18,271 nt of DNA, from the IMG/VR virus record IMGVR_UViG_2872698443_000001. One strand, written 5' to 3'. The translations under genes and the position numbers were made by a program. The stretch comes from a virus. Taxonomy: Duplodnaviria > Heunggongvirae > Uroviricota > Caudoviricetes. Positions 908 through 18,271 of the stretch are shown here, piece after piece (position 1 is the stretch's first letter; each line of letters starts with the position of its first letter). The notes under the pieces are model-generated. The model was given only the letters and a program-made list of their open reading frames with translations, ran no database searches and was not told the DNA's origin.

Positions 908-985
908 ATAAAAAAGGCGCTTCCCCATGCCGAGTAGCGCCTTTTTAATCAAGCATTTAGCTAACCTGAATTAGTTCATGCCGTA
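908..985. repeat. Left copy of ~78-bp imperfect direct repeat (att-type junction) carrying a fis-terminator-like hairpin and a diverged fis 3'-end remnant
   Basis: 908-947 matches 17912-17951 at 39/40 positions (AAAAAAGGCGC-N-TCCCCATGCCGAGTAGCGCCTTTTTA); 948-985 matches 17952-17989 at 28/38, including a perfect GTTCATGCCGTA block that is the reverse complement of the fis C-terminal codons. Confidence 0.8.
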
Positions 986-1114
986 CTGTCATATTAGCTG
1001 TTTTCATGCTTTTAGATGATTTTAATATTCATATAATAATCAATGTGTTGTATAAATTCATGCCTGTATATTGTTCCAGTGTTTTTCTTTGTTTATGCTA
1101 TTATGCAAGCAATT

Positions 1115-1137
1115 CTGTATAAACATTTGTATAAACA
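1115..1137. promoter_or_regulatory. Tandem TGTATAAACA decamers (x2), candidate integrase arm-type binding sites or int promoter element
   Basis: CTGTATAAACATTTGTATAAACA lies just upstream of int; an almost identical 23-bp block in the same orientation occurs at 17886-17908 at the opposite end of the element. Confidence 0.45.
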
Positions 1138-1155
1138 CTTTGGGCTGGGTGGTCT

Positions 1156-2376
1156 ATGGCTGGCGAACTTAACAAACTGAGCGACAGGAAGTTAAAGGGA
1201 TTACATGGTATCCCGGCCAGTAAGATTGAGTTCTATGCTGATGGTGCCGGGCTGAGCGCCAAGGTAACTAAAGCTGGTGGTATTAGCTGGGTGTTTACTT
1301 ACCGACTCGACGGGCAGAAGCTGCATCGTCTTACTCTGGGACGATACCCGGATATGAGCCTCAAAGAGGCCCGTTCTTCGCGTGATAAATGCCGCCAATG
1401 GCTGGCCTCAGGTAAAGATCCAAAGCACCAGTTGGCGCTGACCACTCAGGAAACGCTTAAACCGGTCACTGTTAAGGAAGCTATAGAATACTGGATACGC
1501 GAATATGCAGAAGAGAACCGCGCGAATGTTGAACGGCACAAAGCGGAGCTGCGAAAACACATTTATCCTTATATAGGGAAAATGGCGCTCGCTGACTGTG
1601 AAACACGATACTGGCTTGACTGCTTTGACAGGATGAAAAAGAAAACTCCAGTCGCCGCAGGTTATGTGTTCCAGATGTGCAAACAAGCCCTGAAATTCTG
1701 CCGGGTTCGTCGCTATGCTGTGAGTACCGCGCTTGAAGATTTAACAATTCCAGATGTCGGTAAAAAACAGGCAAAAAAAGACCGGGTATTAAACGATAAA
1801 GAGGCTGGCGATTTATGGGCTGCCATTTCCTCTGGCACTTGCTTCATGCCTTACTACACCAGGCTACTGACAATCTTAATGGTGTTTGGGTGCCGAACGC
1901 AGGAGGCCAGGCTATCAGAGTGGAGTGAATGGGATATGGATGCCTGGGTCTGGACAGTTCCCAAAGAGCACAGCAAGGGCGGCGAGAAGATTGTAAGACC
2001 TGTGCCGGATGCCATGCGCAAATTCATTGAAATACTGCATGATGAAACGAAACGATCCGGCCTTTTGCTTGGGTCGGTTAAAGGCAGTGAAGCGGTAAGT
2101 CAGTGGGGCCGCGGTGTTTATAAAAAGCTGGGGCATTCTGAACCATGGACACTGCACGATCTAAGACGAACTTTAGCAACGCATATGAATAATATGGGTA
2201 TAGCACCACACGTTGTCGAACAGTTGTTGGGGCACTCAATGCCGGGAGTTATGGCGATTTATAACCGTAGTCTGTACTTGCCTGAGAAATTGGATGCGTT
2301 GAATAAATGGTATGACAGACTTGATATTTTATCAGGTGGATTCACTAACATTGTTTTGTTGAATAGGGCTGAATAA
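1156..2376 (+). CDS. Tyrosine-type site-specific integrase (P4-like, 406 aa)
   Basis: Long ORF adjacent to the att repeat; C-terminal catalytic signatures (HDLRRT, GHSMPGVMAIYNRS with the presumptive catalytic Tyr); N-terminal region resembles the arm-binding domain of P4-family integrases. Confidence 0.9.
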   Translation: MAGELNKLSDRKLKGLHGIPASKIEFYADGAGLSAKVTKAGGISWVFTYRLDGQKLHRLTLGRYPDMSLKEARSSRDKCRQWLASGKDPKHQLALTTQETLKPVTVKEAIEYWIREYAEENRANVERHKAELRKHIYPYIGKMALADCETRYWLDCFDRMKKKTPVAAGYVFQMCKQALKFCRVRRYAVSTALEDLTIPDVGKKQAKKDRVLNDKEAGDLWAAISSGTCFMPYYTRLLTILMVFGCRTQEARLSEWSEWDMDAWVWTVPKEHSKGGEKIVRPVPDAMRKFIEILHDETKRSGLLLGSVKGSEAVSQWGRGVYKKLGHSEPWTLHDLRRTLATHMNNMGIAPHVVEQLLGHSMPGVMAIYNRSLYLPEKLDALNKWYDRLDILSGGFTNIVLLNRAE

Positions 2377-2923
2377 TGACTAGTTTTCTAAAATTGGGTA
2401 TTTTCGAGCGAGAAGCCAAAGCCCCGGAACTCAATATTAAACAACTTGCACTACTTATGTGTGGGGTAGATCCGACAGTTAAAACTGCTGATATCCCTGA
2501 GGCGAAAGTTGAAGCTTACAATATATACTATCGACAACTGAGTAGATGGTTATCAGCATCTAAATTATTTCGAGGTGGAAACTCAACAGCCTATCCCGCA
2601 GACTATATGTTTGCTCTGGCATATCCTCTTATTGATGAAGATATTACACCACAACCCATAAAGGACAGATGCCTTGCGGCGGTGGCTATAATTGCTAATC
2701 AAAACAAAGGAAAAGAGCATCTTTATGCTATGGGAGGGGATGAGCTTTTACAGGTCGGAATTGCATTGAAAAGCAGCAAACGCGGCTTGCATCGTAAAGA
2801 AGATGAAAAGGAATATAATGATAAATTAATGGGGATGCTGGTCAAGCTTATAGCACATAAGATAGGCCGGTAATGCTGCCAACTTACTGATTTAGTGTAT
2901 GATGGTGTTTTTGAGGTGCTCCA

Positions 2924-3199
2924 GTGGCTTCTGTTTCTATCAGCTGTCCCTCCTGTTCAGCTACTGACGGGGTGGTGCGTAACGGCAAAAGCACCGCCGG
3001 ACATCAGCGCTATCTCTGCTCTCACTGCCGTAAAACATGGCAACTGCAGTTCACTTACACCGCTTCTCAACCCGGTACGCACCAGAAAATCATTGATATG
3101 GCCATGAATGGCGTTGGATGCCGGGCAACTGCCCGCATTATGGGCGTTGGCCTCAACACGATTTTACGTCACTTAAAAAACTCAGGCCGCAGTCGGTAA
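2924..3199 (+). CDS. insA: IS1 InsA
   Basis: 91-aa [26 protein letters not shown]... recognised as IS1 InsA with its zinc-finger and HTH region. Confidence 0.95.
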
Positions 3200-3621
3200 C
3201 CTCGCGCATACAGCCGGGCAGTGACGTCATCGTCTGCGCGGAAATGGACGAACAGTGGGGCTATGTCGGGGCTAAATCGCGCCAGCGCTGGCTGTTTTAC
3301 GCGTATGACAGGCTCCGGAAGACGGTTGTTGCGCACGTATTCGGTGAACGCACTATGGCGACGCTGGGGCGTCTTATGAGCCTGCTGTCACCCTTTGACG
3401 TGGTGATATGGATGACGGATGGCTGGCCGCTGTATGAATTCCGCCTGAAGGGAAAGCTGCACGTAATCAGCAAGCGATATACGCAGCGAATTGAGCGGCA
3501 TAACCTGAATCTGAGGCAGCACCTGGCACGGCTGGGACGGAAGTCGCTGTCGTTCTCAAAATCGGTGGAGCTGCATGACAAAGTCATCGGGCATTATCTG
3601 AACATAAAACACTATCAATAA
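3118..3621 (+). CDS. insB: IS1 InsB (expressed as InsAB' transposase by -1 frameshift)
   Basis: 167-aa ORF recognised as IS1 InsB; overlaps insA in the -1 frame; frameshift site TTAAAAAAC at about 3173-3181. Confidence 0.9.
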
Positions 3622-3939
3622 GTTGGAGTCATTACCAGATAGGCCATTCGTTTGGCACCTCTAAAAAACCAAGCATCTCGGCTATTTTAAACGAACTATA
3701 TAAATTAGCTGATGAGGAAGGTATATCTAAAACTGGATTATCCAAATCAGCAATATATGATAAAATTCGCAAGGCATTAAATTCGATTTATTATACGGAA
3801 TGAATATTATTTTGCAGTGTTAGTGGGTATTATTTATATTTCATGTGAAAATACTAATTAATTATATTTGTTGGAGCTTTTGGCGATTCTATGATCGCCA
3901 AGGAGATTCAATTGTTATATTTGATGTTTATTACAGTTA

Positions 3940-4020
3940 CATTCAACAGCATTCAACAGCATTCAACGACACGTAATGACACGTAACGGCACCCGACAGC
4001 ACCTAACAATACCTAGCTCC
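3940..4020. repeat. Array of ~10-bp phased direct repeats (CATTCAACAG x3, CACGTAAYGR x2, CACCYRACA-like x2)
   Basis: Read directly: successive near-identical decamers with exact 10-bp spacing in the AT-rich intergenic region upstream of alpA. Confidence 0.6.
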
Positions 4021-4060
4021 ATCCACGGTCTCTACTAGGTCATTACTTGCTAACTTTTTC

Positions 4061-4120
4061 CATCTTTGTTCATGGTTATTCATCACTGTTCATCAGCGTT
4101 CATCATTGTTCATCTTTGTT
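4061..4120. repeat. Six phased CATC-NN-TGTT decamers (iteron-like, TGTTCAT core); candidate crr-like or regulatory protein-binding array
   Basis: CATCTTTGTT CATGGTTATT CATCACTGTT CATCAGCGTT CATCATTGTT CATCTTTGTT at exact 10-bp periodicity; the TGTTCAT core resembles the TGTTCACC iterons at 8571-8799, about 4.5 kb away. Confidence 0.5.
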
Positions 4121-4373
4121 ATGAACAATCCAAGGCGAATCAAATCGTTAGAGAACGGTGATCTTCGGCGAGTTATTGAAATTCATGATTTTTTCTCTCG
4201 CGACAGCCGTTGAAATTACTGTGGAAATTGTTTTCAACAGGGGAGCGTTATCTTGATGGAATTTCTATCTTTCAATGGAATTGCGTGTTCTTTTAAAGGA
4301 TTCCAGAATCAATGGAAATGCTGGTCGTTTATCCACTAATCTCTTCGCATAACATTGAAACAGTGGAGGCAGC

Positions 4374-4658
4374 ATGCAAAATATAACCTTTACCCCGCCA
4401 AATCCTGAACAACGCCGCACCCTTTTAGAAGAGTACGGCTTTAAGTTTGATCGCCGAATCCGTGAAGATGAATGCAGCGAGATCACCAGTCTTTCCCGTT
4501 CCAGCCGCTGGAAGATGGAACAGCAGGGGCGCTTCCCTCCGCGCTGTCACTTTGGCCGCAATAGCTGTGCTTGGCTTCTTTCGGATGTGCTCTGGTGGGT
4601 TCGTAATCCGCCAGCAGTAGAGAACGTCAATAACCCATACAGCCGTAAATCTGCTTAA
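4374..4658 (+). CDS. alpA: AlpA-family phage transcriptional regulator (94 aa)
   Basis: Translation contains the AlpA-type HTH region (ITSLSRSSRWKMEQQGRFPPRCHFGRNSCAWLLSDVLWW); GGAGG Shine-Dalgarno 5 nt upstream of the ATG. Confidence 0.85.
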   Translation: MQNITFTPPNPEQRRTLLEEYGFKFDRRIREDECSEITSLSRSSRWKMEQQGRFPPRCHFGRNSCAWLLSDVLWWVRNPPAVENVNNPYSRKSA

Positions 4659-4678
4659 TTAACCACAGGTAATCTGAG

Positions 4679-5371
4679 ATGAAAAAGATTAATGCCCTCC
4701 ACGGGCAGGGATTCGCTCACCCTGTAGCCAGCCAGCACGATATTTCAGCGAACCGTAAACAGGTTATTGCCGGTGACTGGTCGCCCATTAATCGTGGTGA
4801 ATTTACGCTTGCCGATCTGGGGTTGCGCCACAACGGTAACGGGCTGGTGTGGCTGCGTTCCGGCGTGTCCGTGCATGAGGCAGACCATGATGCAGGGATA
4901 AGCGGCAAGGACAAGACCAAAGGAAGGGTTAACGGCCTTCCTTTTGAATTTGTCGGCCAGTGGCAGGAATACCCGACTAAACGCAGCTTTGCCGTTTCAG
5001 TATCTACGGAACTACGGCGCCAGTATTACCCGGACGATGCCGCATTCAGTAAGGCAATGCGTGAGGCTGGTTATGTTCCGGTGCGCACTCGCAAACTGAC
5101 CGGAAAGGATGCTCGTTTTTGGCTGTACCGTGTAACGGGCAATGATAAGGGGGTTGTCGCAGCAGAATCCGCGCCACACAAGGCTTGCGCGCCAGTTGTC
5201 CAGACCATATCTAAGCCTCATCCGTGGTTTAAGCGTGTGGCACTCGATGGTAAATGGCAGTACGTCTACGCAGATCACATCCGCTTTCTGACTAAAAAGC
5301 GTCATCGCGTCGATGGTGTTCGGGTTCAGGGGTATACCGCTGGCGGGCTGAAAGTGGAGGCTATTGTATGA
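4679..5371 (+). CDS. Hypothetical protein (230 aa)
   Basis: Long ORF co-directional with alpA; its stop overlaps the next ORF start (ATGA). No family recognised. Confidence 0.6.
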   Translation: MKKINALHGQGFAHPVASQHDISANRKQVIAGDWSPINRGEFTLADLGLRHNGNGLVWLRSGVSVHEADHDAGISGKDKTKGRVNGLPFEFVGQWQEYPTKRSFAVSVSTELRRQYYPDDAAFSKAMREAGYVPVRTRKLTGKDARFWLYRVTGNDKGVVAAESAPHKACAPVVQTISKPHPWFKRVALDGKWQYVYADHIRFLTKKRHRVDGVRVQGYTAGGLKVEAIV

Positions 5372-5723
5372 CAGGCAAAACAAAGGCGGCCATGCCGGGC
5401 CGCCTGAGTCTCAACGCTTTACTGAAACATCGCCAGATTACCAGGCTTGCCGCTGGTGGTCAAACCTTGAGCCAACGAAATCCGTACGCACAAATTAACC
5501 GCGTACGTTTAATGTACGGAGATCGAGACAAAGGCGAACAGTATTCGGGTTCATGGCAAAACAACGTTAAACGTGGTTTAGAGGCTCCGACGAAAAACGT
5601 AGAGAGCTGCGAAGATAACCAACCCTCTTTAAGAGGGGAGCCTCTGCACAACTCATTAATAGTTGCGCAAAACAGACCCTTTTTAAGAGGGGCAGTCCAC
5701 AGCATTACGGGGAGTAACCCTGT

Positions 5724-5897
5724 TCAGCCTTTTGGCTCGATGCCGCGCTTATCAAGTTCACGGCGCAAAAGGCGTTTTATCCATCCCGACTTATTATCGT
5801 CACCGTCTTCTTTCATCGCTAAAGCGAGCCGCTCTGACAGTTCTTTATCGAGTCTGAGCTGCACAACATGGCGCTCTTTATTTTCGCTTGTTGACAT
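5724..5897 (-). CDS. Ribbon-helix-helix (CopG/Arc-like) small DNA-binding protein, 58 aa, antisense to the surrounding operon
   Basis: MSTSENKERHVVQLRLDKELSERLALAMKEDGDDNKSGWIKRLLRRELDKRGIEPKG shows a beta-strand then two helices typical of RHH proteins; AGGAG Shine-Dalgarno 6 nt upstream of the ATG (reverse complement of 5895-5908). Start chosen at an internal Met of the 95-aa track ORF. Confidence 0.6.
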   Translation of the reverse strand: MSTSENKERHVVQLRLDKELSERLALAMKEDGDDNKSGWIKRLLRRELDKRGIEPKG

Positions 5898-5940
5898 TGT
5901 CAACTCCTGTGGTCTAGTCTGTAGTGGAGTTGACAATGTA
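5894..5940. promoter_or_regulatory. Perfect 14-bp inverted repeat (ACATTGTCAACTCC / GGAGTTGACAATGT) with 18-bp spacer overlapping the RHH gene start; candidate operator
   Basis: Arms at 5894-5907 and 5926-5939 are exact reverse complements; each arm contains a TTGACA hexamer and an SD-ATG arrangement. Confidence 0.5.
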
Positions 5941-6037
5941 CTACATTGCATGACTTTTAGTAAAGCAAAGCCCGGCAGTGGTGGAACACTAACCGGGCCT
6001 CTAACCACCACCGTTAGCGAAAGTAACGAGGCAGCTA

Positions 6038-6228
6038 TGAAAGATCATATCACACACCCGCAAGGGCGGAAGTCCTACATCTGGCGTTTTCTTGCACTGA
6101 GCGCCATCGGTCGCAACGTCATTCACATCACAGCTAACACTGAGCGCGAAGCCCGTGAGCAATCACCGGCTGGCTGCGTGATGGTATTCGCTGGCCGTCT
6201 ACCAGTTCAGGAGGTTCGCTATGCGTGA
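6038..6228 (+). CDS. Small hypothetical protein (63 aa), possible true 3' portion of the 286-aa track ORF
   Basis: Internal ATG at 6038 preceded by GAGG; its stop overlaps the start of the next ORF (ATG 6221, TGA 6226-6228), consistent with translational coupling. Weak evidence. Confidence 0.3.
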
Positions 6229-6415
6229 GCCAATCTGTCTGGAGCAGGCCGAATATAAATCAGCGCTGGCTTCATCACTTTACGAAACCATCCTGGAAAA
6301 AGCCTCTGCTGAATGTTCAGAAACGCTGCTGAATCTGATTTCTATTGCGTGTGATTTTAATCAGGAAATTCACCGGGCATTAATCGCCGAGCTGCACATG
6401 GGAGAGACAAAGTGA
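6221..6415 (+). CDS. Small hypothetical phage protein (64 aa)
   Basis: ORF in a chain of overlapping small genes immediately upstream of the replication gene. Confidence 0.5.
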   Translation: MREPICLEQAEYKSALASSLYETILEKASAECSETLLNLISIACDFNQEIHRALIAELHMGETK

Positions 6416-6627
6416 GACAGGTTCCTTTTGAAGTCCTGATGCACGCTGAAAATGCCCTTTCAGAAAGTGAGTGCGCAATGTCTGTGCTAAGCATGTGGAT
6501 TGACAGCATTCCCGACGGTGAAGAACACCGTGAGGAAGCGTGCCGTGTCGGAGCAATTATGTCTCTGCTGCACAAATCTATCGGCGAGCTGGTGAAGGCG
6601 CGGGAGGCTTACAGTGCGAAATCCTGA
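6412..6627 (+). CDS. Small hypothetical phage protein (71 aa, GTG start)
   Basis: GTG start preceded by GGAGAG; overlaps the previous stop, indicating translational coupling. Confidence 0.5.
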   Translation: MRQVPFEVLMHAENALSESECAMSVLSMWIDSIPDGEEHREEACRVGAIMSLLHKSIGELVKAREAYSAKS

Positions 6628-6805
6628 AATCAACGATAGCTGGAAGGATAAGCGCGGCGAACTGGTCACGGTGAAAGATAACGCATTTAACCGGGTAACG
6701 TTTGTGCGTGATGGTTACGATTTTCCGTGCATCTTTCCGCTGGAAAGGTTCGTTAAAGAGTTCACTTTCGTTAGCTGGGGGCTGAAAGATGAAAAACGCG
6801 CCTAA
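6614..6805 (+). CDS. Small hypothetical phage protein (63 aa, GTG start)
   Basis: GTG start preceded by GGGAGG; overlaps the start of the replication gene. The pattern resembles small proteins I recall next to P4-family replication genes, but that is from memory and uncertain. Confidence 0.5.
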   Translation: MRNPEINDSWKDKRGELVTVKDNAFNRVTFVRDGYDFPCIFPLERFVKEFTFVSWGLKDEKRA

Positions 6806-8540
6806 TGTGAAAACCCTCCCGCGCGACAAAATGGAGGAGGCCATCATCTTTGCTGGAACGGGAGCATGGAAAGCCGCTCAGGATTACCAGAAAGGGAAGG
6901 GCGAGCATGGAGACGATGTTCCGCCTGTGGTTCTGGATCACACTCAACTGGCGGAATTGCCACACCTGCGCATTGTTGATAAAGGCCGTCGATTTGCCCG
7001 TGTCTGTCAGGCCGGGCTTATCGAGCAAAACCAAATCAGCATGATTGCAAATAAGCTGTGTGAGGCTGGCGTTACCAATGCTGAGTTTATCAACGAAAAA
7101 GGCGAGAAAGAGGACTGGACGCCATTGATGAAACGTCTGGAAGACGAGCCACTTATGGTGACTACGAGGGGAAGTGCTACGCCTGCGCTTAACCAGATGG
7201 GAGCCAGCCAGCGCGGGGAAGTTCTGCTTGCTCATTACGATGGCAATCTGGCGATCCATGCTGATTCCGACACGGTTCATCATTACAACGGCGTGGTGTG
7301 GGTTCCGCTTTCGGATAAAGAGCTGCAGCGAGAAATGGCGCAGATTTTTATTGATTCCGAAGTCGCCTATTCGCAGAACGCGATTAAATCCGCTGTCGAT
7401 ACAATGAAGCTGGGCCTCCCGGTAATGGGTAACACAGCCCGTAACCTGATTGGTTTCAGCAACGGGGTTTTTGATACCCGGTTAGGCCAATTTCGACCGC
7501 ATGATAAAAAGGACTGGCTTATCGTTGCGAGCGAATTGCCATTCAGCGAACCAGCAGAAGGTGAAACTCTGGCAACCCATGCGCCTAACTTCTGGAAATG
7601 GCTCCGCCGCTCTGTGGCGGATAATGACCGAAAAGCAGACCGCGTACTGTCTGCGCTGTTTATGGTGCTGGCGAACCGGTACGACTGGCAGCTGTTTCTT
7701 GAGGTAACGGGGCCGGGCGGAAGTGGTAAAAGTGTTATGGCTGAGATCTGCACGATGCTGGCGGGCAAGGCCAACACCGTATCGGCGAGCATGGCGGCGC
7801 TGGAGAACCCAAGGGAAAGGGCGCTGGTAGTGGGCTATTCGCTGATTATCATGCCGGATATGACCCGGTACGCTGGCGACGGCGCAGGGATTAAAGCTAT
7901 CACTGGCGGGGATAAGGTAGCCATTGACCCTAAACACAAAGCGCCATATTCAACCCGTATACCTGCGGTGGTGCTGGCCGTCAATAACAATGCCATGTCG
8001 TTCAGCGACAGAAGCGGGGGGATTTCCAGACGGCGGGTGATTTTCAACTTCTCCGAAGTGGTACCGGAAAACGAACGCGATCCTATGCTGGCCGAGAAGA
8101 TTGAAGGTGAGCTGGCTGTAATCATTCGCCACCTGCTCACTCGCTTTTCCAGGCAGGACGAAGCCAAACAGCTTTTGCATGAGCAGCAAAAATCAGAAGA
8201 AGCGCTGGCCATTAAACGTGAAGGGGATTCACTGGTGGACTTTTGCGGCTACCTGATGGCTTCGGTGGTTTGTGATGGAATGCTGATTGGTAATGCCGAG
8301 ATCGTGCCATTCAGCCCGCGCCGTTATCTGTATCACGCTTATCTGGCTTACATGCGGGCCAATGGTCTTAGCAAGCCTGTATCGTTAATGCGGTTCGGTA
8401 CGGATATGCCAGGCGCAATGGCTGAATATGGCAAGGAGTACCAGAAGCGCAAAACTAAACATGGCATAAGATCGAACGTCACCCTGCATGATGATTCAGA
8501 AGACTGGATGCCAATGTGTACCGATACAACAAAAGAATAA
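6789..8540 (+). CDS. P4-alpha-like replication protein with SF3 helicase domain (583 aa); no obvious primase domain
   Basis: Walker A GPGGSGKS in a D5/P4-primase-C-terminal-type helicase context; followed immediately by an array of TGTTCACC iterons, the recognition sequence of P4 alpha. Confidence 0.85.
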   Translation: MKNAPNVKTLPRDKMEEAIIFAGTGAWKAAQDYQKGKGEHGDDVPPVVLDHTQLAELPHLRIVDKGRRFARVCQAGLIEQNQISMIANKLCEAGVTNAEFINEKGEKEDWTPLMKRLEDEPLMVTTRGSATPALNQMGASQRGEVLLAHYDGNLAIHADSDTVHHYNGVVWVPLSDKELQREMAQIFIDSEVAYSQNAIKSAVDTMKLGLPVMGNTARNLIGFSNGVFDTRLGQFRPHDKKDWLIVASELPFSEPAEGETLATHAPNFWKWLRRSVADNDRKADRVLSALFMVLANRYDWQLFLEVTGPGGSGKSVMAEICTMLAGKANTVSASMAALENPRERALVVGYSLIIMPDMTRYAGDGAGIKAITGGDKVAIDPKHKAPYSTRIPAVVLAVNNNAMSFSDRSGGISRRRVIFNFSEVVPENERDPMLAEKIEGELAVIIRHLLTRFSRQDEAKQLLHEQQKSEEALAIKREGDSLVDFCGYLMASVVCDGMLIGNAEIVPFSPRRYLYHAYLAYMRANGLSKPVSLMRFGTDMPGAMAEYGKEYQKRKTKHGIRSNVTLHDDSEDWMPMCTDTTKE

Positions 8541-8570
8541 AGGCGGGGAAAATTAAAAGTAATGGGATAA

Positions 8571-8799
8571 GTGTTCACCACTGTTCACCATGTATAAAAA
8601 TCATTAAATAACAATATGTTAATGGGTGAACACTTTTTTATGAAGTGTTCACCAAGTATTCACCAGTTCACCTTTAAAGGGCTTTTCTTTTAAAAGGTGA
8701 AGGGTTAAGGTGAACACTAGTGAATACTTAAAATCATAGTCTTCACCCTGTAACCGAATGAATTTAAATAGGAAAAATGCAAAGGTGAACAGGTGAACA
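8571..8799. repeat. Origin-type iteron array: about 10 copies of TGTTCACC / GGTGAACA in both orientations (P4 ori-like)
   Basis: Copies at about 8572, 8582, 8625 (rc), 8646, 8657 (variant), 8665 (variant), 8709 (rc), 8720 (rc variant), 8784 (rc) and 8791 (rc), in AT-rich DNA just downstream of the helicase gene. Confidence 0.8.
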
Positions 8800-8837
8800 C
8801 TTAAACGCATATTTTTAAATTTTACAGGAGGGGCTGT

Positions 8838-9098
8838 ATGCCAATCACTAACGAGGAACGTAGGGAACACCTGGAAAAGTTTGGTTTAACCAGTCTTGAT
8901 ACAACGCACACTGCCGATTACCGTAAAGCCCTTGAAGAGGAAGCGTTCTTTTGGGATGACCCACACGGTTTTGTGATGCACACGCTTTCCGGAGAGCGAC
9001 TCGTTACGAATACAGAACAGCTGGATGCCTTGCTCGAGCATCTGGAAGGATACCGTGCTTTATTGCCTGACCCTCCGGAATGGATGAGAGAAGATTAA
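8838..9098 (+). CDS. Small acidic hypothetical protein (86 aa)
   Basis: ATG preceded by AGGAGGGG; the protein has many more Asp/Glu than Lys/Arg residues. No family recognised. Confidence 0.55.
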   Translation: MPITNEERREHLEKFGLTSLDTTHTADYRKALEEEAFFWDDPHGFVMHTLSGERLVTNTEQLDALLEHLEGYRALLPDPPEWMRED

Positions 9099-9104
9099 TC
9101 AAGT

Positions 9105-9125
9105 GGCCTCATCACAGATGAGGCC
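9105..9125. terminator. Hairpin between convergent genes (8-bp stem GGCCTCAT / ATGAGGCC, loop CACAG); possible bidirectional terminator
   Basis: Perfect inverted repeat between the stop of 8838-9098 (+) and the stop of 9137-9658 (-); flanking T-tracts are weak. Confidence 0.4.
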
Positions 9126-9136
9126 TAATATGAGAT

Positions 9137-9658
9137 TTAACGATGTAATTCATTAATTTTGTCGCTGACGTTTTTTTTCCTTAACTCATTCAAGAAAAAA
9201 TAATTAACAAGTATCACCCTAAATATCGCTGCGAATTGCGCGATAGCCAAGAAAGCTACAAATGTAAAATTAAGGTATTTAACATAAGGGATATAGTTAA
9301 CATCAACCAGGCCTTTAAGTAAAGGGGCGAAGAATTGTATAAGAAGAACAGCCATTAATACAACAGCTGATACCATGACGATCTCAACTAATTCGCTTAA
9401 ATAATTAGCATCTTTATGTGATTCCTTCCCCTCGGCTTTATTTGATTGAGGTGAGTCCCTCTTATTTAATATTCTCGCCATCGCCCTTGGATAAATAATT
9501 GCTATCCAGGCGCCTATAATGGCAAATATTATAGATGAAATATTAAGCAGGGCACCTAGCGTGTCCTTGTAATCATTATAGCCAAGCGTTGTTATTCGGC
9601 CTCTAAATATAATGGCCATCAAGGCTGCTATAAGCACATAAATTATATATTTTATCAT
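9137..9658 (-). CDS. Small integral membrane protein with four predicted transmembrane helices (173 aa); second gene of cargo operon
   Basis: Four hydrophobic stretches (about residues 4-18, 34-56, 88-113, 129-153) separated by charged loops; its start is 1 nt after the upstream gene's stop (TGA-C-ATG on the minus strand); visibly AT-rich. Confidence 0.75.
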   Translation of the reverse strand: MIKYIIYVLIAALMAIIFRGRITTLGYNDYKDTLGALLNISSIIFAIIGAWIAIIYPRAMARILNKRDSPQSNKAEGKESHKDANYLSELVEIVMVSAVVLMAVLLIQFFAPLLKGLVDVNYIPYVKYLNFTFVAFLAIAQFAAIFRVILVNYFFLNELRKKNVSDKINELHR

Positions 9659-9659
9659 G

Positions 9660-10694
9660 TCACCCCCCTGCTGGTGGTGTCTTCATTTTGTTTAACAACT
9701 CTGCTCTGCGTTTTATTATAGCAGATAACAGTCTTTCTGGAGCTATTATGTGGTTATCTTTTCGCCGAACATTTAGCTCGGTTTCAAAAGCAACATTTGC
9801 ACCGCTAAGCCAGATAGATTTCCCGTCACTATATTTGAAGCCAACATTCCTTATAGGTGAGCTATTACCTAACTCATTATAGTTTTTAATAATTAATTTT
9901 AGCTGTGATTCTGTTGGTTTGAATTCCATCTCGTGAAAGATCGTTCTTTCCTGTGTGTTTGCTGGTGTGTTTTTTAACAGGCCAGAAAAAACTCTTTCAA
10001 TTATTTTTCTATCATCTGGGGCTAAATAAGTTATTTTTTCTCTTTTTAATATCTTTGTGATTCTGTGAATGTTATTAATTAACTCTGCCTGAACCTCATC
10101 ATATTTCATTCCTACAGCATAAAATTTAGGGTTTAATTTTTCTGAATCAGAGTTTTTCTTAGCATCAGCGGAAAAGCCAATTACTTTATCATCATTATCG
10201 AGCACGCGATATGGGGATTTGTTTGCAAGATATCCATTGAGATAGTTATCAAGATTACCCTTTCCCATTAGAGAGTGTTCAAATTTGATTGAAGCAAAAG
10301 CATTTTCATCAGGAATGAACCAAAAGTAACAAGGAAATCCTGGAATAGCCTTATCGACATCAAATCCAGTGGTTAACATATCCACTTTACCGGGTTTAGC
10401 TAGCGGTGGCATACCATATATCACCCCACTATCATTGGGAACCTCTGCCCAAAGAGTTAAAAGGTGGTCTCCGTACTGCCTGTCTGACGCCAAACCACAA
10501 AAATAGGTATTGCGGATGTCCTCTTCCTTTTCGGCTTGGTAGGTAAGAGTATTGATGAACTCTCTTCCATCAGAAGCCCAACCTTTCAGTTTAAGCAATG
10601 TATCAGTGGTGTTGCCTAAGTCTGGTTTTTTAGAGCCGTGCTTGTAATATCCGCATCTATTGATATCAAAAAACTTCAGTTTTGCAGTTAGCAT
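9660..10694 (-). CDS. Hypothetical soluble protein (344 aa); first gene of cargo operon, candidate sensor or effector of a defence system
   Basis: Long ORF with a good RBS (AAAGGAAAATAA-ATG); visibly AT-rich compared with the flanking capsid and replication genes; no nucleotidyltransferase, ATPase or other motif recognised by eye. Confidence 0.75.
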   Translation of the reverse strand: MLTAKLKFFDINRCGYYKHGSKKPDLGNTTDTLLKLKGWASDGREFINTLTYQAEKEEDIRNTYFCGLASDRQYGDHLLTLWAEVPNDSGVIYGMPPLAKPGKVDMLTTGFDVDKAIPGFPCYFWFIPDENAFASIKFEHSLMGKGNLDNYLNGYLANKSPYRVLDNDDKVIGFSADAKKNSDSEKLNPKFYAVGMKYDEVQAELINNIHRITKILKREKITYLAPDDRKIIERVFSGLLKNTPANTQERTIFHEMEFKPTESQLKLIIKNYNELGNSSPIRNVGFKYSDGKSIWLSGANVAFETELNVRRKDNHIIAPERLLSAIIKRRAELLNKMKTPPAGG

Positions 10695-10708
10695 TTATTT
10701 TCCTTTTT

Positions 10709-10736
10709 ATTATCACTACCGAGAGGCTGTGGTTAA
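10709..10736 (-). promoter_or_regulatory. Candidate sigma70 promoter for the cargo operon (extended -10 GTGATAAT, -35 TTAACC, 16-nt spacer)
   Basis: Reverse complement of 10709-10716 is GTGATAAT and of 10731-10736 is TTAACC; positioned just upstream of the 344-aa gene. Motif-level only. Confidence 0.3.
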
Positions 10737-10845
10737 ATAATCTAACAAAAAAATTCTTTTGTAAATTATTTGTTCTCATGTTTATTCGTGATTGCCTCTG
10801 TCTATGTACGGGGTTTTCTTTATATTTTTCATGTATATCTTTAAG

Positions 10846-10933
10846 AGTGGCACTCAGACGTGAGCCGCCACTGGCCGTTAAGTCAAGCTGTAGCGAGTAC
10901 AGCCTGCGAGAGGCAGAAAAAGATTTAACGGCC
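10846..10933. other. GC-rich nested inverted-repeat element in an otherwise AT-rich divergent intergenic region
   Basis: Outer 9-bp stem GGCCGTTAA (10873-10881) / TTAACGGCC (10925-10933) enclosing hairpins GCTGTA-GCGAG-TACAGC and CTGC-GAGAG-GCAG; a further GTGGC/GCCAC stem at 10846-10870. Confidence 0.35.
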
Positions 10934-10988
10934 TCCCCTCCAAGCGCTGGTTTCACGTCTCAACGTTAATTGTTACGGAAACCACTCC

Positions 10989-12155
10989 ATGAAGAAACTA
11001 CTCGAATTACGCCAGCAGAAAGCCGCACTCAAAACACAGATGCGTTCCATGCTGGACAAAGCCGACACCGAAAAGCGCAGCCTGAACGAAGAAGAGGGCC
11101 AAAAGTTCGATGAACTCCGCGCCCAGGCTGATGCGCTTGAAGTTGAAATCACCCGTCTAGAAGCCGTCGCCGACGATCAGCGCAATCTGCCTGGTACTTC
11201 CGTTGAAGGTGAGCCAGTAAGCAACGACGAGCTGCGCCACTACATCATGACAGGTGATACCCGTTCTCTCTCCACGCTGGTGCAGGCTGATGGCGGCTAT
11301 ACCGTTATCCATGAGCTGGACAAAGAGATTATGCGCCAGTTGCAGGATGATAGCGTGATGCGCTCCATCGCAACGGTGAAGACCACCAAAACCAACGAAT
11401 ACCAGAAGCTGGTATCTGTGGGCGGCACTACCGTTAATCGTGGTACCGAAGGTGAGGCACGTACCGAAACCAGTACGCCGAAGATGGAGCGCGTTGATAT
11501 CAAACTCAACCCGATCTACGCCTACCCGAAAACCACTCAGGAGATTCTCGACTTCTCCGAGGTGGATATTTTGGGCTGGCTGTCTTCTGAAATTGCCGAC
11601 ACCTTCACCGCGACCGAAGAAAGCGACTTTGTGAACGGCGACGGTGATAAAAAATCCAAAGGCTTCCTGTCTTACCCTCGCGCGGCCACTGCCGACAAAA
11701 CCCGTCCGTTCGGTACGCTGGAGAAGATGGAAGCGGCTGACGTTTCCTCTGATGGCCTGATCGACCTGCTGTATAAGCTGAAAGCCAAATACCGCAAAAA
11801 CGCCGTATGGGTGATGAACTCCAACACCGCAGCCAAACTGCAAAAGCTGAAAAACGGCAACGGGGATTACATCTGGCGCGATCGTCTGGTTGCCGGTTCT
11901 CCCGATACGCTGCTGGGCCGTCCTGTTCAGTATCTGGAAACCATGCCGGATGCGGAGGCAGGTAAAGCATTCCTCGCGGTAGGCGACTTCAAGCGCGGCT
12001 ATTTCATCGTGGATCACACCACTGGCGTGCGTACCCGCCCTGACAACATCACCGAACCGGGTTTCTACAAGGTGCATACCGATAAATACCTGGGCGGCGG
12101 CGTGGTGGACTCCAACGCCATCAAGGTGCTTGAGCTTTCAGGCTCCGGTTCCTGA
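10989..12155 (+). CDS. HK97-fold major capsid protein (388 aa) with N-terminal coiled-coil scaffolding (delta) region
   Basis: N-terminal charged coiled-coil segment followed by a capsid-like body; size and composition typical of HK97-family major capsid proteins; followed by an intrinsic terminator. Confidence 0.9.
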   Translation: MKKLLELRQQKAALKTQMRSMLDKADTEKRSLNEEEGQKFDELRAQADALEVEITRLEAVADDQRNLPGTSVEGEPVSNDELRHYIMTGDTRSLSTLVQADGGYTVIHELDKEIMRQLQDDSVMRSIATVKTTKTNEYQKLVSVGGTTVNRGTEGEARTETSTPKMERVDIKLNPIYAYPKTTQEILDFSEVDILGWLSSEIADTFTATEESDFVNGDGDKKSKGFLSYPRAATADKTRPFGTLEKMEAADVSSDGLIDLLYKLKAKYRKNAVWVMNSNTAAKLQKLKNGNGDYIWRDRLVAGSPDTLLGRPVQYLETMPDAEAGKAFLAVGDFKRGYFIVDHTTGVRTRPDNITEPGFYKVHTDKYLGGGVVDSNAIKVLELSGSGS

Positions 12156-12165
12156 TTTGACGTTT

Positions 12166-12187
12166 AAGGGGCTTCGGCCCCTTTTTG
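12166..12187 (+). terminator. Rho-independent terminator after the capsid gene
   Basis: AGGGGC-TTCG-GCCCCT hairpin followed by TTTTT. Confidence 0.7.
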
Positions 12188-12206
12188 CCCTCTGTGGAGT
12201 CCAGTA

Positions 12207-12767
12207 ATGAAAACAATCGATTTTGAAATCCGTACCTCCGAAGTGAGCGCCAGCAACAAAAAGCTGGTGGGCTATGCCGTACGCTGGAACAGTCTCTCTG
12301 AAATTATCTGGGACGAGTTCCGCGAGCAGTTTGCGCCGGGAGCGTTTAAAGACAGCCTGGCATCCGGTAGCGATGTGCGTGCGCTGTACGAGCATAACTA
12401 TACCCAGCTGCTGGGCCGCACTAAATCCGGCACGCTGGTGCTGTCAGAAGATGATACCGGGCTGCGCTTCGAGCTGACCCCGCCGAATACCCAGCTTGGC
12501 AACGATGTGCTGGAGCTGGTGGAGCGTGGGGATATCTCCGGCATGAGCTTTGGTTTCCGGGCGCTGAAAGAGGCGTGGGATATCGGCCAGTCTCCATACC
12601 TGCGCACTGTTACCGCAGCCGAACTGCGGGAGATTACCGTTACCTCTATGCCTGCTTATCCTGAGTCTGGAGTGGAAATCGCGCACCGTTCGCTTTTCTC
12701 CCAACATCCTGAACTGTGCCGCGCTGGCGATAACCGTCGCCGCTGGGCTGAATTAGCGGGGCTCTGA
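12207..12767 (+). CDS. HK97-family prohead (head maturation) protease (186 aa)
   Basis: Size, position within the head module and sequence pattern consistent with HK97-type prohead proteases; GGAG RBS upstream. Confidence 0.8.
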   Translation: MKTIDFEIRTSEVSASNKKLVGYAVRWNSLSEIIWDEFREQFAPGAFKDSLASGSDVRALYEHNYTQLLGRTKSGTLVLSEDDTGLRFELTPPNTQLGNDVLELVERGDISGMSFGFRALKEAWDIGQSPYLRTVTAAELREITVTSMPAYPESGVEIAHRSLFSQHPELCRAGDNRRRWAELAGL

Positions 12768-12768
12768 T

Positions 12769-14010
12769 ATGTGGAATATCTGGCCGTTTGGCCGTAAGTC
12801 TGAACCCTCTGAGCAGCGCAGCATGACCATTGATGAATTTCTGGCGATGGCAGGGATTCCAAATACCGGATCAGGCGAGTATGTGTCTGCGGGTACTGCG
12901 GAATCTCTGCCGGCGGTCATGAACGCCGTATCAGTTATCAGTGAGGCGGTGGCAACAATGCCCTGCTACCTCTACCGCGTGCGTAATGATAACGGGCGTG
13001 AGGCGCGAGAATGGCTGAGCAATCATCCGGTGGATTTTCTGCTGAACGAGCAGCCGAACGACTGCCAGACACCTTACCAGTTTAAACGCACGATGATGCG
13101 CCATTGTCTGCTGAATGGTAACGCCTATGCGGTGATCCAGTGGGGCCGCGACGGCCAGCCGCAATCCCTGCATCCGTATGCGCCGGGGGCGGTTGTTCCT
13201 GAGCGTATCGGCCAGCATAAGTACAAATACACCGTTACTGAACCGTTTACCGGGGCAGTGCGCACCTACTTGCAGGAAGAGATTCTGCACCTGCGTTACT
13301 CGACCGATGATGGTTTTCTGGGGCGCTCGCCGATCACCATCTGCCGTGAGGCGCTGGGGTTAGGTCTGGCCCAGCAGCGCCACGGTGCCAGCATTATGAA
13401 AGATGGCATGATGGCGGCGGGCGTAGTCACGACTGCTGAATGGCTCGATAGTGTGAAGGGTAAGCAGGCGCTGGACGCGCTTGAGCGCTACAAAGGTGCC
13501 AGAAATGCCGGTAAAACGCCGATCCTTGAAGGTGGCATGGACTATAAGCAGCTTGGCATGAGCAATCAGGATGCTGAGTGGTTGGCCTCCCGGCGCTTCA
13601 CCATCGAAGATATTGCCCGCATGTTTAACGTTTCTCCCATCTTCTTGCAGGAATACAGCAACAGCACCTACAGCAATTTTAGTGAGGCGAGCCGCGCCTT
13701 TCTTACCATGACAATGCGCCCGTGGCTGGCGAACTTTGAGCAGCAGATTAAATCCGCGTTGCTGGTGGCATCGCCTGTACCCGGAATCCGTTATCAGGTG
13801 GAGTTCGACTCTGCCGATCTTCTTCGAGCCACTCCAACCGAACGCTACGCAACTTATGAGCGCGGTATCAAGAACGGGATCATGAACCCGAACGAAGCCC
13901 GCGAACGCGAAGGGATGCCGCCGCGTGAAGGTGGCGACGAATACAGCCAGGCATGGAAGCAGGAAGTGAAGGTCAGTACCGATTCTGAGACTAAGGAGGA
14001 TGCGTTATGA
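12769..14010 (+). CDS. Phage portal protein, HK97 family (413 aa)
   Basis: Size, position in the head module and conserved central region typical of HK97-family portal proteins; its stop overlaps the start of the next gene. Confidence 0.85.
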   Translation: MWNIWPFGRKSEPSEQRSMTIDEFLAMAGIPNTGSGEYVSAGTAESLPAVMNAVSVISEAVATMPCYLYRVRNDNGREAREWLSNHPVDFLLNEQPNDCQTPYQFKRTMMRHCLLNGNAYAVIQWGRDGQPQSLHPYAPGAVVPERIGQHKYKYTVTEPFTGAVRTYLQEEILHLRYSTDDGFLGRSPITICREALGLGLAQQRHGASIMKDGMMAAGVVTTAEWLDSVKGKQALDALERYKGARNAGKTPILEGGMDYKQLGMSNQDAEWLASRRFTIEDIARMFNVSPIFLQEYSNSTYSNFSEASRAFLTMTMRPWLANFEQQIKSALLVASPVPGIRYQVEFDSADLLRATPTERYATYERGIKNGIMNPNEAREREGMPPREGGDEYSQAWKQEVKVSTDSETKEDAL

Positions 14011-14342
14011 GGCCGGGAGGATTAAGGCAACGCGTCACGATTCAGAATTTTACTACCAGCCGAACCCCTTCTGGTGGCGTCATTCAGGAATGGTACGACG
14101 TTGCGACAGTCTGGGCAGAAGTGAAGGGGATCAGTGGCCGTGAGCTGATTGCTGCGGGTGCTGAAATGTCCGAGGTTACATTTCGTATGTGGATACGTTA
14201 CCGCTCTGACGTAACCAGCGCCAGCCGGATCATCTGGAAACAGAAAGGACATGATGCAAAAGCATTTGATATTCAGTCGGCAATTCCTGATGAAAAGGCT
14301 ACCAGGCTGGAGTTGCTTTGTAAGGGAGGGCTTAAGCCGTGA
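14007..14342 (+). CDS. Head closure / head-tail joining protein (111 aa)
   Basis: Small protein translationally coupled to the portal gene; sequence pattern (RVTIQ..., ATVWAEV..., ELLCKGG) resembles phage head-tail joining proteins. Confidence 0.7.
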   Translation: MRPGGLRQRVTIQNFTTSRTPSGGVIQEWYDVATVWAEVKGISGRELIAAGAEMSEVTFRMWIRYRSDVTSASRIIWKQKGHDAKAFDIQSAIPDEKATRLELLCKGGLKP

Positions 14343-14638
14343 GTGAACTAATTGGGCTTGATGAGGCAAAACTTCACTGCCGCATCGATAACGATGATTC
14401 CTATGAAGATGCAATGATTCAGGCATACATCGAAGCGTCACTGGAAGTCTGCCAGAAGCATATCGGTAAACGGTTCGGTGCTGGCCTGGAATTCACTCCT
14501 GCCATCAAGATCGGATGCCTTATGTACGTTTCCCAACTGTACGAATACCGCACGATGATTAGTGATGTGGAGGCGAAAGAGATCCCCCTTGCTATCTCTG
14601 CATTGTGGTCTGTGTATCGCGATGTGGGGGTGTACTGA
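14339..14638 (+). CDS. gp6-like head-tail connector protein (99 aa, GTG start)
   Basis: GTG start after AAGGGAGGG; N-terminal LDEAKLHCRIDNDD...DAMIQAYIEAS pattern typical of gp6-like connector proteins. Confidence 0.7.
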   Translation: MSELIGLDEAKLHCRIDNDDSYEDAMIQAYIEASLEVCQKHIGKRFGAGLEFTPAIKIGCLMYVSQLYEYRTMISDVEAKEIPLAISALWSVYRDVGVY

Positions 14639-15081
14639 TGCCGTGGCAACCAATGCGCCGGTGCACTGAGCCGGGATGCAATAAGCGGGTGAAGTCTGGT
14701 AAGTGCGATGAGCACAAGCGGGAAGCCTGGCGGGCGGAAGATGCCAGACGCGGCCACCGTCGCGCCCGTGGTTACTCAGCATCATGGGAGAAGTACCGCG
14801 CTCAGTATCTGAAACGTCAGCCGCTATGTGTCGAGTGCCAGAAGCTGGGCCTCTACGTTCCTGCAAAGATTGTCGATCACATCATCCCTATCGACGGCGG
14901 TGATGATGTTCTGTTCTGGCCTGAGTGGAATCACCAGCCGTTATGCCAGATGCATCATAACCAGAAGACCACGCAGCAAGACCCCATCACCAAAGCGAAC
15001 CGTAAGGCAGGGCTGTACCGAGAGCAGGAAGAGCGTGCAGCCCATCGCAATGACTGGATGTATGAGGCCAGCAATGAATGA
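14638..15081 (+). CDS. HNH endonuclease (packaging-associated), 147 aa
   Basis: Cys-rich HNH region (CNKRV...C...HK...C.EC...DHIIPI...H...N...C..HH); start taken at the ATG overlapping the upstream stop (TGATG); located directly upstream of terS and terL. Confidence 0.85.
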   Translation: MPWQPMRRCTEPGCNKRVKSGKCDEHKREAWRAEDARRGHRRARGYSASWEKYRAQYLKRQPLCVECQKLGLYVPAKIVDHIIPIDGGDDVLFWPEWNHQPLCQMHHNQKTTQQDPITKANRKAGLYREQEERAAHRNDWMYEASNE

Positions 15082-15226
15082 GAAAGACGTGGTGAATCTG
15101 TACCGATCATTGATGCGCTGCCGTGATGGCTTCATGCAGGGGAGAAGCAGGCGCAATGAGCGCCAGCCTGTGCAGCGTATGAGCGAGCGTGAACGGGAGT
15201 TGCGGGAATGCTTCCGCAACCGCTGA
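15074..15226 (+). CDS. Possible small basic protein (50 aa) in the HNH-terS intergenic region
   Basis: ATG overlapping the HNH stop; Arg-rich translation MNEKDVVNLYRSLMRCRDGF...; no RBS assessed. Low confidence. Confidence 0.25.
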   Translation: MNEKDVVNLYRSLMRCRDGFMQGRSRRNERQPVQRMSERERELRECFRNR

Positions 15227-15356
15227 CAGGCCGCATGGACGGGGTGGGGGAGGTTTTCAGGACAAACCTCAAGGTGCCAGGCACCGCCCGCCCCCTCAAA
15301 TTTTTACGCACGGTGATTTTTTTGAAAATAAAACGCGATGGAAACGAGAAATTTTT

Positions 15357-15713
15357 ATGGCAAGACCACCAAAACCGCCAGCTTACCTTGATGAGTTAGC
15401 CGCGCAGCAGTGGAAAGCGAAAGCGAAGCAACTGGCCGAGCGTGGCGATCTGACACCCGCCGACTGGAACAACCTTGAGCTTTTTTGCGTCAACTATTCG
15501 ATGTACCGCAAAGCAGTGGAAGACCTTGCCAGCCGTGGGTTCAGCATTGTTAACAGCCAGGGGGGCGAGAGCCGAAATCCTGCACTGAGTGCAAAGGCCG
15601 ATGCTGAAAAAATCATGATTAAAATGTCGTCGCTGCTGGGCTTTGATCCGGTAAGCCGCCGCCGTAACCCGGTAGAAACGGAAGAGGAGGACGAGCTTGA
15701 CCGTCTGGAATGA
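15357..15713 (+). CDS. Terminase small subunit, P27-like (118 aa)
   Basis: From internal Met: MARPPKPPAYLDELAAQQWKAKAKQLAERGDLTPADWNNLELFCVNYSMYRKA... matches the P27-family TerS pattern. The 56 codons upstream in the track ORF are low-complexity and probably not translated. Confidence 0.8.
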   Translation: MARPPKPPAYLDELAAQQWKAKAKQLAERGDLTPADWNNLELFCVNYSMYRKAVEDLASRGFSIVNSQGGESRNPALSAKADAEKIMIKMSSLLGFDPVSRRRNPVETEEEDELDRLE

Positions 15714-17358: not shown

Positions 17359-17508
17359 GCATAAAGCGTAAAGGAAGAATTATCTTGAGGTTATCAGGAA
17401 TATAAAATTGCTCTAGATCACTACATTGCTGTCGTGGAATAGGAAGAGTCTGTTTTGTTGTTTATAAATGTATTGCAGGGCTTTTCCTGTTCAAACTTCT
17501 GGTGAAAT

Positions 17509-17817
17509 ATGACTGATAAATGGGCTGATTACCTTATTTCTAAAGTCCGATATAACGATAAACACACTCACATTACCCATGTGTATGTGCATGTCGATAA
17601 TGGCGATACTGTTGGAGAAGGGACATCAGAAACACGGCAGTGGGTAGTGAATAAAATCGATAGCGGCTATACCTTTTACACCATTTTCAAAGGTGATGAC
17701 GGTAAGTGGAAGAAAGGTCAAAAAGTGGTTAAGGACCGTGTCAACGGTACTGATTACATTACTACTAGACCTAATGGTACATCCAAGGATAACTTAGAAA
17801 ACCTTCCTGAGTACTAA
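17509..17817 (+). CDS. DUF3892-like protein (102 aa), terminal cargo gene
   Basis: HITHVYVHV... and ...TTRPNGTSKDNLENLPEY motifs match my recollection of DUF3892 proteins; AT-rich; sits between terL and the right att repeat. Confidence 0.65.
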   Translation: MTDKWADYLISKVRYNDKHTHITHVYVHVDNGDTVGEGTSETRQWVVNKIDSGYTFYTIFKGDDGKWKKGQKVVKDRVNGTDYITTRPNGTSKDNLENLPEY

Positions 17818-17842
17818 ACACTTTGGTTACTAAAGGCATAAA

Positions 17843-17870
17843 GCATCAGAATTGTTCTGGTGCTTTTTTG
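17843..17870 (+). terminator. Rho-independent terminator after the DUF3892-like gene
   Basis: GCATCAGAA-TTG-TTCTGGTGC hairpin (one G-U pair) followed by TTTTTTGTTTGTT. Confidence 0.65.
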
Positions 17871-17885: not shown

Positions 17886-17908
17886 CTGTATAAACATCTG
17901 TATAAACA
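17886..17908. promoter_or_regulatory. Second tandem TGTATAAACA pair, candidate arm-type integrase binding sites on the opposite arm
   Basis: CTGTATAAACATCTGTATAAACA matches 1115-1137 at 22/23 positions in the same orientation, 4 bp from the right att repeat. Confidence 0.45.
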
Positions 17909-17911: not shown

Positions 17912-17989
17912 ATAAAAAAGGCGCATCCCCATGCCGAGTAGCGCCTTTTTATTCAATAACATAGCTGAAATGTATCAGTTCATGCCGTA
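17912..17989. repeat. Right copy of ~78-bp imperfect direct repeat; includes the fis terminator and the last five fis codons
   Basis: See 908-985; this copy is contiguous with the intact fis gene (stop at 17975-17977). Confidence 0.8.
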
Positions 17990-18271
17990 TTTTTTCAATT
18001 TTTTACGCAGCGTACCACGGTTGATGCCCATCATCAGCGCAGCACGGGTCTGGTTACCACGGGTGTATTGCATCACCATGTCCAACAGGGGCTGTTCTAC
18101 TTCAGCCAGTACCAGCTCATAGAGGTCATTCACATCCTGACCATTCAGTTGAGCAAAATAGTTCTTCAGTGCCTGTTTAACCGAGTCACGCAGGGGTTTT
18201 TGGGTTACCTGATCCTGAGAGTTAACGGTAGAAACGGTCAGTACGTCAGAATTTACGCGTTGTTCGAACAT
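17975..18271 (-). CDS. fis: DNA-binding protein Fis (complete, 98 aa; host gene)
   Basis: Translation is recognised as Fis, ending ...[13 protein letters not shown]; the ORF exactly fills the window end. Confidence 0.95.

Follow-up and report, generated by a model that had tools for sequence, protein, structure and literature searches.

Paired decamers on both attachment arms of a capsid-forming satellite at fis are predicted to be arm-type sites of its own integrase

The window, i.e., the whole stretch of 18,271 nucleotides analysed here, carries a mobile element that spans approximately positions 986-17911. The yhdJ gene lies at the left edge, and the flank up to position 985 matches, at 100% identity, the yhdJ-fis region that is free of an insertion in ~5,400 E. 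coli genomes. Related satellites are found at the same fis position in other E. coli strains. Pfam assignments gave the element the gene set of a capsid-forming PICI (cf-PICI). The left module codes for a tyrosine integrase (Int), an IS1 transposase, an AlpA-family protein and a D5-type primase-helicase, and the right module codes for an HK97-type capsid protein, a prohead protease, a portal protein, head completion/connector proteins, an HNH protein, TerS and TerL. No tail genes were found among the Pfam-assigned genes of the element. Because of this gene set, the att repeats, and the same organisation in the RefSeq-annotated loci L001-L006, we conclude that the element is a capsid-forming PICI, i.e., a phage satellite, integrated at the 3′ end of E. 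coli fis. The features considered below are collected in Table 1.

Table 1. Positions of the attachment-region features and associated genes in the window
Feature	Position	Strand	Basis or remark
attL copy of the 13-nt identity block AGTTCATGCCGTA; candidate strand-exchange region	973..985	.	left repeat is the empty-site sequence
IHF-consensus match AATCAATGTGTTG between core and proximal sites	1038..1050	+	consensus match only; binding predicted
Conserved box CTGTATATTGTTCCAGTG	1064..1081	+	contains -10-like TATATT
Int-proximal arm-type site 1 (predicted), TGTATAAACA	1116..1125	+	exact decamer; kept at this position in 14 class-A loci
Int-proximal arm-type site 2 (predicted), TGTATAAACA	1128..1137	+	18 nt 5′ of the int ATG
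int, tyrosine integrase of 406 aa, DUF4102/IntSXT-P4 type	1156..2376	+	Pfam and PDB sequence match
int codons 1-65, arm-binding-domain segment tracking motif class	1156..1350	+	class separation; Pfam domain at residues 8-92
AlpA-family protein, candidate excision factor	4374..4658	+	Pfam PF05930; not tracking the motif
Distal arm-type site 1 (predicted), TGTATAAACA	17887..17896	+	between the terminator of the last element gene and the fis-terminator surrogate
Distal arm-type site 2 (predicted), TGTATAAACA	17899..17908	+	exact decamer
Element-borne surrogate of fis stop codon and terminator	17912..17976	.	86% like host 908-972
fis, host target gene	17975..18271	-	RefSeq annotation of identical sequence
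attR copy of the 13-nt identity block	17977..17989	.	continuous with the fis coding sequence

Int contains an Arm-DNA-bind_3 domain (PF13356, residues 8-92, E-value 5e-19) and a catalytic domain (PF00589, residues 212-373). Residues 8-92 also match, distantly (E-values 2e-7 to 1e-6), the sequences of PDB entries 3JU0 and 3JTZ/3RMP, which PMC8138268 presents as DUF4102-family arm-type binding domains of island integrases (HPI/HAI7). A single-sequence AlphaFold model of Int residues 1-110 (pLDDT 57) placed strands at residues 32-37, 43-51 and 55-64, and a helix at residues 69-85. At this low model confidence, the predicted strands and helix would be compatible with an arm-binding fold. An integrase 100% identical to that of the window, with the same arm sites, is encoded in another genus, by Enterobacter hormaechei B17-3 (L021, 1454-2671), which fits the occurrence of identical cf-PICIs across genera described in the cf-PICI literature.

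Several other features of the window copy were recorded. The IS1 copy (2869-3640, with the left terminal repeat at 2869-2891 and InsB at 3118-3621) truncates the 3′ end of the gene that follows int, and of the 220 positions of profile phrog_30524 the remaining orf165 covers only 4-168. On the minus strand, a neighbouring pair of ORFs (9137-10694; 173 and 344 aa) gave matches to PDC-M18, a candidate defence system in PADLOC (M18B, E-value 8e-23; M18A, E-value 2e-71). Homologues were present in none of 28 related satellites, so that this pair looks like cargo particular to the window copy. Two further groups of repeats were noted: three tandem TGTTCATCA-like units with 10-nt spacing upstream of alpA (4079-4115), which may serve as a regulatory operator, and clustered inverted GGTGAACA repeats directly after the primase gene (8549-8822), which may be the replication origin.

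The decamer TGTATAAACA is present in the window in four exact copies, all on the + strand and none elsewhere, which are grouped as two pairs (1116-1137 and 17887-17908) with 12 nt from start to start. When up to one mismatch was allowed, seven matches were obtained relative to 1.07 expected, and none of 200 shuffled sequences reached seven. The 22-mer TGTATAAACATNTGTATAAACA, at up to three mismatches, matched solely at the two pair positions (0.00 expected). Since these copy counts exceed the shuffled and expected values, the decamer pairs are beyond chance. A preliminary description of this DNA had reported identical blocks of 23 bp, in direct orientation, just inside each end of the element. 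The direct orientation is that of all four decamers, and the decamers themselves are exact copies, but the 23-mers at 1115-1137 (CTGTATAAACATTTGTATAAACA) and 17886-17908 (CTGTATAAACATCTGTATAAACA) are equal at 22 of 23 positions, a single spacer base being T in one and C in the other. As to placement, the right pair is indeed 3 nt from the right copy (17912-17989) of a 78-nt repeat, whereas the left pair lies 130 nt inward of the left copy (908-985) and ends 18 nt before the int ATG (1156), so that the arrangement is asymmetric. The terminator of the last element gene, which precedes the distal pair, is at 17840-17866. The 2-nt spacer of the proximal pair (1126-1127) and its flanks vary freely among relatives. 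Degenerate extra copies at 1049 (TGTATAAATT), and on the reverse strand at 1090 and 17869, are not kept among relatives and were not counted as sites.

The two copies of the 78-nt direct repeat are 86% identical, and the whole repeat had been taken previously as a core of ~78 bp. That assignment has to be abandoned: the left copy has the sequence of the host empty site, and the right one is a version that the element itself carries. Hence, strand exchange would take place after the last difference between them, in the 13 nt that both share, and the crossover region must be the block AGTTCATGCCGTA, formed by the last fis codons, in which the exact cut sites are placed by inference. The other 65 nt of the right copy would then be part of the attP distal arm and not of the core. 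They form a surrogate of the end of fis: as read from the sequence, fis terminates after insertion at TGA instead of TAA, and its terminator is supplied by the element. The surrogate varies among elements while the host copy is constant, and sometimes it equals the E. coli host sequence (L006, L021). Relative to the 13-nt block, the proximal pair occupies +131 to +152, counted from the block's end. The distal pair is ~69-90 nt before the block and ends ~81 nt before the block's end.

Viral contigs were then searched with the predicted attP junction, and ten loci were obtained. Nine of them are integrated, with host flanks, and one, the 15.5-kb metagenome contig L094, is an excised form. The order of features in L094 is TerS, TerL, distal pair (2935-2956), core (3025-3036), proximal pair (3168-3189) and int (3208), followed by alpA and the capsid, protease and portal genes; fis, yhdJ and any host genes are absent from the 15.5 kb. 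The arrangement that had been foreseen for the excised circle, with the blocks flanking the core on both sides, can thus be seen directly. The repeated sites are on both arms of attP, outside the core, and are unlike the core in sequence. The functional attP is defined as a segment of ~260 bp, with a 13-nt crossover region and 2+2 predicted arm sites.

For comparison, 80 loci with flanks sufficient for both ends were fetched from Enterobacterales genomes with a capsid-protein query, and 35 loci with a related integrase (fetched loci, the window and E. coli loci) formed the comparison set. A period-12 pair of ~10-nt units is found just upstream of int in all 35 loci, and the same motif pair recurs at the far end in 30 of them. 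Five motif classes were distinguished, which replace one another on both arms: TGTATAAACA (class A); GTGCAGTCAGT and variants; GGTGGGGTAAT or GGTGGGGTAC (class C); GTGTATCAAT; and GTATTGCA-like motifs. With the exception of L053, the mapped loci all show 122-132 nt from the identity block to the start of the proximal pair, and ~81-89 nt from the end of the distal pair to the end of the identity block. This pair-to-crossover geometry is nearly constant across motif classes, at fis and at no fewer than four other attB sequences. In class A, positions 4-8 and 10 of the footprint are invariant in 56 sites from 14 loci, and the spacer and flanks are unconstrained; judged from this comparison, the conserved footprint appears to be exactly the decamer. 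Some relatives (L028, 2018-2051, and L019, 1193-1226) carry three period-12 copies on the int-proximal arm instead of two.

The preliminary description had read the repeats as arm-type integrase sites. We considered that the pairs could instead be transcription operators only, bound by Int or by another repressor, for int and for the last operon, with no role in recombination. The position of the proximal pair, 18-40 nt before the int ATG, the TATAAA inside each decamer, and the match of orf286 (5368-6228) to phage repressor families would all suit such operators. However, a terminator precedes the distal pair and the fis-terminator surrogate follows it, which leaves nothing for an operator to control at this place; classes that lack TATAAA take the same positions, and most relatives are without orf286 homologues. 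Furthermore, the distances from pair to crossover are kept across attB sites and motif classes, which fits a recombination scaffold. A purely regulatory role is thus very improbable.

Motif class was found to track the N-terminus of Int. The identity between Int N-domains is 82% within a class and 57% between classes (maximum 67%), and 34 of the 35 N-domains have a nearest neighbour of their own motif class. These counts overstate the independent events, since the loci are phylogenetically related. About three independent switches between classes A and C are evident (Proteus; Xenorhabdus; Enterobacteriaceae vs Rosenbergiella). The rest of Int does not separate the classes, with up to 96% identity between them, and neither does AlpA, with up to 98%. 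The 21 proteins of the window's element were tested against 28 complete loci for class separation. Only residues 1-65 of Int told class A (identity of 72% or more) apart from the other loci (57% or less); for every other protein, either the class ranges overlap or the protein is not universally present. The class-specific residues F26, A31, A35 and T48 of Int are in the strand region predicted by the low-confidence model.

A natural swap of the same segment was found in Proteus. The L026 and L028 satellites carry TGTATAAACA and the L034 satellite carries GGTGGGGTAC; between the former and the latter AlpA is 97-98% identical, Int from residue 61 onwards is ~99% identical, and Int residues 1-60 are ~43% identical. 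On the proximal arm, the DNA of these satellites is near-identical from the crossover to the bases beside the pair; the adjoining stretch, which ends at int codon ~60, is unrelated, and identity resumes after it. A second, separate replacement of ~100 bp affects the distal arm, where it includes the pair and is bordered by conserved flanks. The Proteus elements also differ in other accessory genes, which do not track the motif elsewhere. In the A/C switch of Xenorhabdus, AlpA is 91-96%, the rest of Int 72-81%, and the N-domain 58-63% identical, and a likewise A/C switch separates the window from the Rosenbergiella locus L020. Since only Int 1-65 separates the classes, and in view of the Proteus swap, these comparisons suggest that the site sequence changes when the arm-binding domain changes.

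These data also bear on the proposal that the decamers are bound by the AlpA-family protein, as an excision factor or regulator, instead of by Int. Direct repeats close to att sites are targets of AlpA-type proteins in other elements, and in the first E. coli comparison AlpA differed together with the motif (42% identity between the window-type and L005-type proteins). Excision-factor sites, on the other hand, are usually restricted to one arm. AlpA is 88-98% identical in three comparisons between elements with different motifs (window vs L018, L026 vs L034, and L069 vs L044), it does not separate class A from the other classes, and in the Proteus swap both pairs change with AlpA unchanged. 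We regard AlpA as a still less probable ligand of the decamers than the operator proposal is as an explanation of them. The pairs might also be a functionless remnant, either of a longer duplication left by past recombination of the element ends or of a chance match in AT-rich DNA. The neighbouring DNA is indeed AT-rich, and in family D2 of the repeat finder the match spans 37 nt with 81% identity, but zero matches are expected by chance, the decamers alone are conserved from E. coli to Xenorhabdus while spacer and flanks drift, and on at least three occasions other motifs took over both arms together, which makes a remnant hardly credible. Binding of the decamers by a host protein that the att region attracts (Fis, IHF, LexA or the like) can be dismissed almost entirely: host factors take part in intasomes, the element adjoins fis, and CTGTATAAACATCTGT superficially resembles the CTGT half of a LexA box, but elements from a single host genus (Proteus, Xenorhabdus) carry different motifs, and a separate, position-conserved IHF consensus is already present between core and proximal pair. 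A LexA box was also rejected on its own terms, given that the units are direct repeats and not an inverted CTGT-N8-ACAG, and that the motif varies within one host genus.

Two loci depart from the rule. In the Pectobacterium locus L015 the proximal arm is of class A and the distal arm of class B, and in Xenorhabdus anantnagensis L069, a tandem array at fis, the proximal arm is of class A and the distal arm of class C. The order in L069 (1840-2210 and 19410-19530) is class-C distal arm, core, class-A proximal arm with int, class-C distal arm, core and fis. Matching arms are not universal, because these two loci are mismatched; judging from their arrangement, both may be trapped recombinants that are unable to excise. 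The proximal half of the association of motif and N-domain could be accounted for by physical linkage, because the proximal pair adjoins the co-varying int codons. The argument rests on the distal pair, which changes in concert across conserved intervening DNA.

We conclude that the satellite's own tyrosine integrase very probably uses the four TGTATAAACA decamers as its arm-type (accessory) binding sites. The reading put forward in the preliminary description is supported by the excised form L094, by the arm-binding domain of Int, and by the co-variation of the motif with Int residues 1-65 in 35 loci. In the literature searched, we found no binding or recombination results for this integrase or its close relatives. 

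In 25 of 28 loci, a sequence that fits the IHF consensus WATCAANNNNTTR with at most one mismatch lies between the core and the proximal pair, at +48 to +62, and the N positions of the consensus vary. On the distal arm of the window no match to the IHF consensus was found at up to one mismatch. The box CTGTATATTGTTCCAGTG, which lies between the IHF-like site and the proximal pair, is kept in classes A and C, from E. coli to Xenorhabdus, and is replaced in classes B and D; it tracks neither the AlpA type nor the motif class cleanly. In L027, a promoter-like match uses the TATATT of the box. The box is a candidate int promoter, excision-factor site or other element. 

In the excised circle, attP would consist, over ~260 bp, of the distal pair, the fis-terminator surrogate, the 13-nt crossover region, the IHF-like site, the conserved box and the proximal pair, followed by int. 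We infer that the N-terminal domain of Int (residues ~8-92, with specificity in ~1-65) would dock on the decamers, and that the core-binding and catalytic domains of the same protomers would hold the core at the fis end. A bend, probably introduced by IHF at the consensus match, would let Int bridge arm and core, in an assembly like that of lambda-type intasomes.

The same geometry could affect int expression. Scans of the window, L027 and L040 gave no convincing sigma-70 promoter over the proximal pair. In the integrated state, the int promoter must lie within the 170 nt from crossover to ATG, so that Int bound at the proximal pair would probably damp its own transcription; occupancy of the proximal pair would lower int transcription. 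In KplE1 (IntS) and P4 (Int), arm sites in attL overlap the int promoter, which leads to autoregulation that was shown for IntS and reported for P4 (PMC2951348). The geometry of the satellite and the KplE1 precedent hint that int may be autoregulated in a similar way. Between the proximal pair and int, the motif ATGAACTAA (or ATGAACTGA) is present in L005, L012, L014, L020, L034 and L044, which are of classes B and C; it occurs twice in the long leader of L034 and is absent from the window. This motif may represent a three-codon leader ORF, or else belong to the ribosome-binding region.

Arm sites as such are to be expected with an integrase of this type, and the interchangeable pairs of motif and N-domain are the more interesting by-product. 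At least five arm classes are accommodated in one fixed geometry, and by sequence they look mutually exclusive. A tentative proposal, which we consider possible but somewhat doubtful, is that the ~60-codon arm-binding segment of Int and the two site pairs form an exchangeable specificity module that has been swapped repeatedly among cf satellites that have the fis 3′ end as their common core site. If this were the case, several satellites could share one chromosomal site, even in tandem, without cross-excision; recombinants with mismatched arms, such as L015 and L069, would be trapped; and the set would hold a natural recognition code for DUF4102-type arm-binding domains. Five motif/N-domain pairs on one scaffold, together with natural chimeras that show hardly any other differences, provide a system in which DNA reading by DUF4102 domains can be studied, and the set could be used to test whether arm specificity keeps co-resident satellites independent. 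It is also a possible source of orthogonal integrase and attP parts. The cf-PICIs move between bacterial genera, and the chemistry of their attachment is not described in the literature searched.

Phage lambda offers the first comparison. Lambda Int is heterobivalent, with an N-terminal arm-binding domain that recognises ~10-bp sites on both arms of an attP of ~250 bp. In lambda attP the core is short, the arm sites are not equidistant from it, and IHF-type sites lie in the intervals; the arm sites number 2+3 (P1 and P2, and P′1-P′3), in mixed orientation. Like lambda, the satellite has an Int with an N-terminal arm domain and predicted ~10-nt sites on both arms at unequal distances; on its proximal arm, a match to the IHF consensus lies in between. 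Unlike lambda, the N-domain of its Int is of the DUF4102/PF13356 family, its predicted sites are 2+2, in strict period-12 pairs of one orientation, and its target is the 3′ end of a protein gene, for which the element carries a surrogate stop codon and terminator. 

The predicted sites belong with those of the P4/CP4-57/HPI-type (IntSXT) integrases, with which the satellite shares the N-domain family, both by Pfam and by sequence match to solved domains, the location of int at the element edge beside attL, and an AlpA/Vis-type small protein encoded nearby. However, those elements mostly target tRNA genes, and their arm-site sequences differ. As in KplE1 IntS/TorI, int is transcribed away from attL, and the start of int is separated from the crossover by arm-type sites, which are predicted in the satellite. 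For KplE1, negative autoregulation results from this arrangement (PMC2951348). The cf-PICI literature searched, which gives attB sites, makes no mention of arm-type sites. With the EcCIEDL933-family cf-PICIs the element has in common the gene set and its order, the lack of tail genes, and a length of ~15-17 kb; unlike them, the window copy carries IS1 and the PDC-M18 candidate defence pair.
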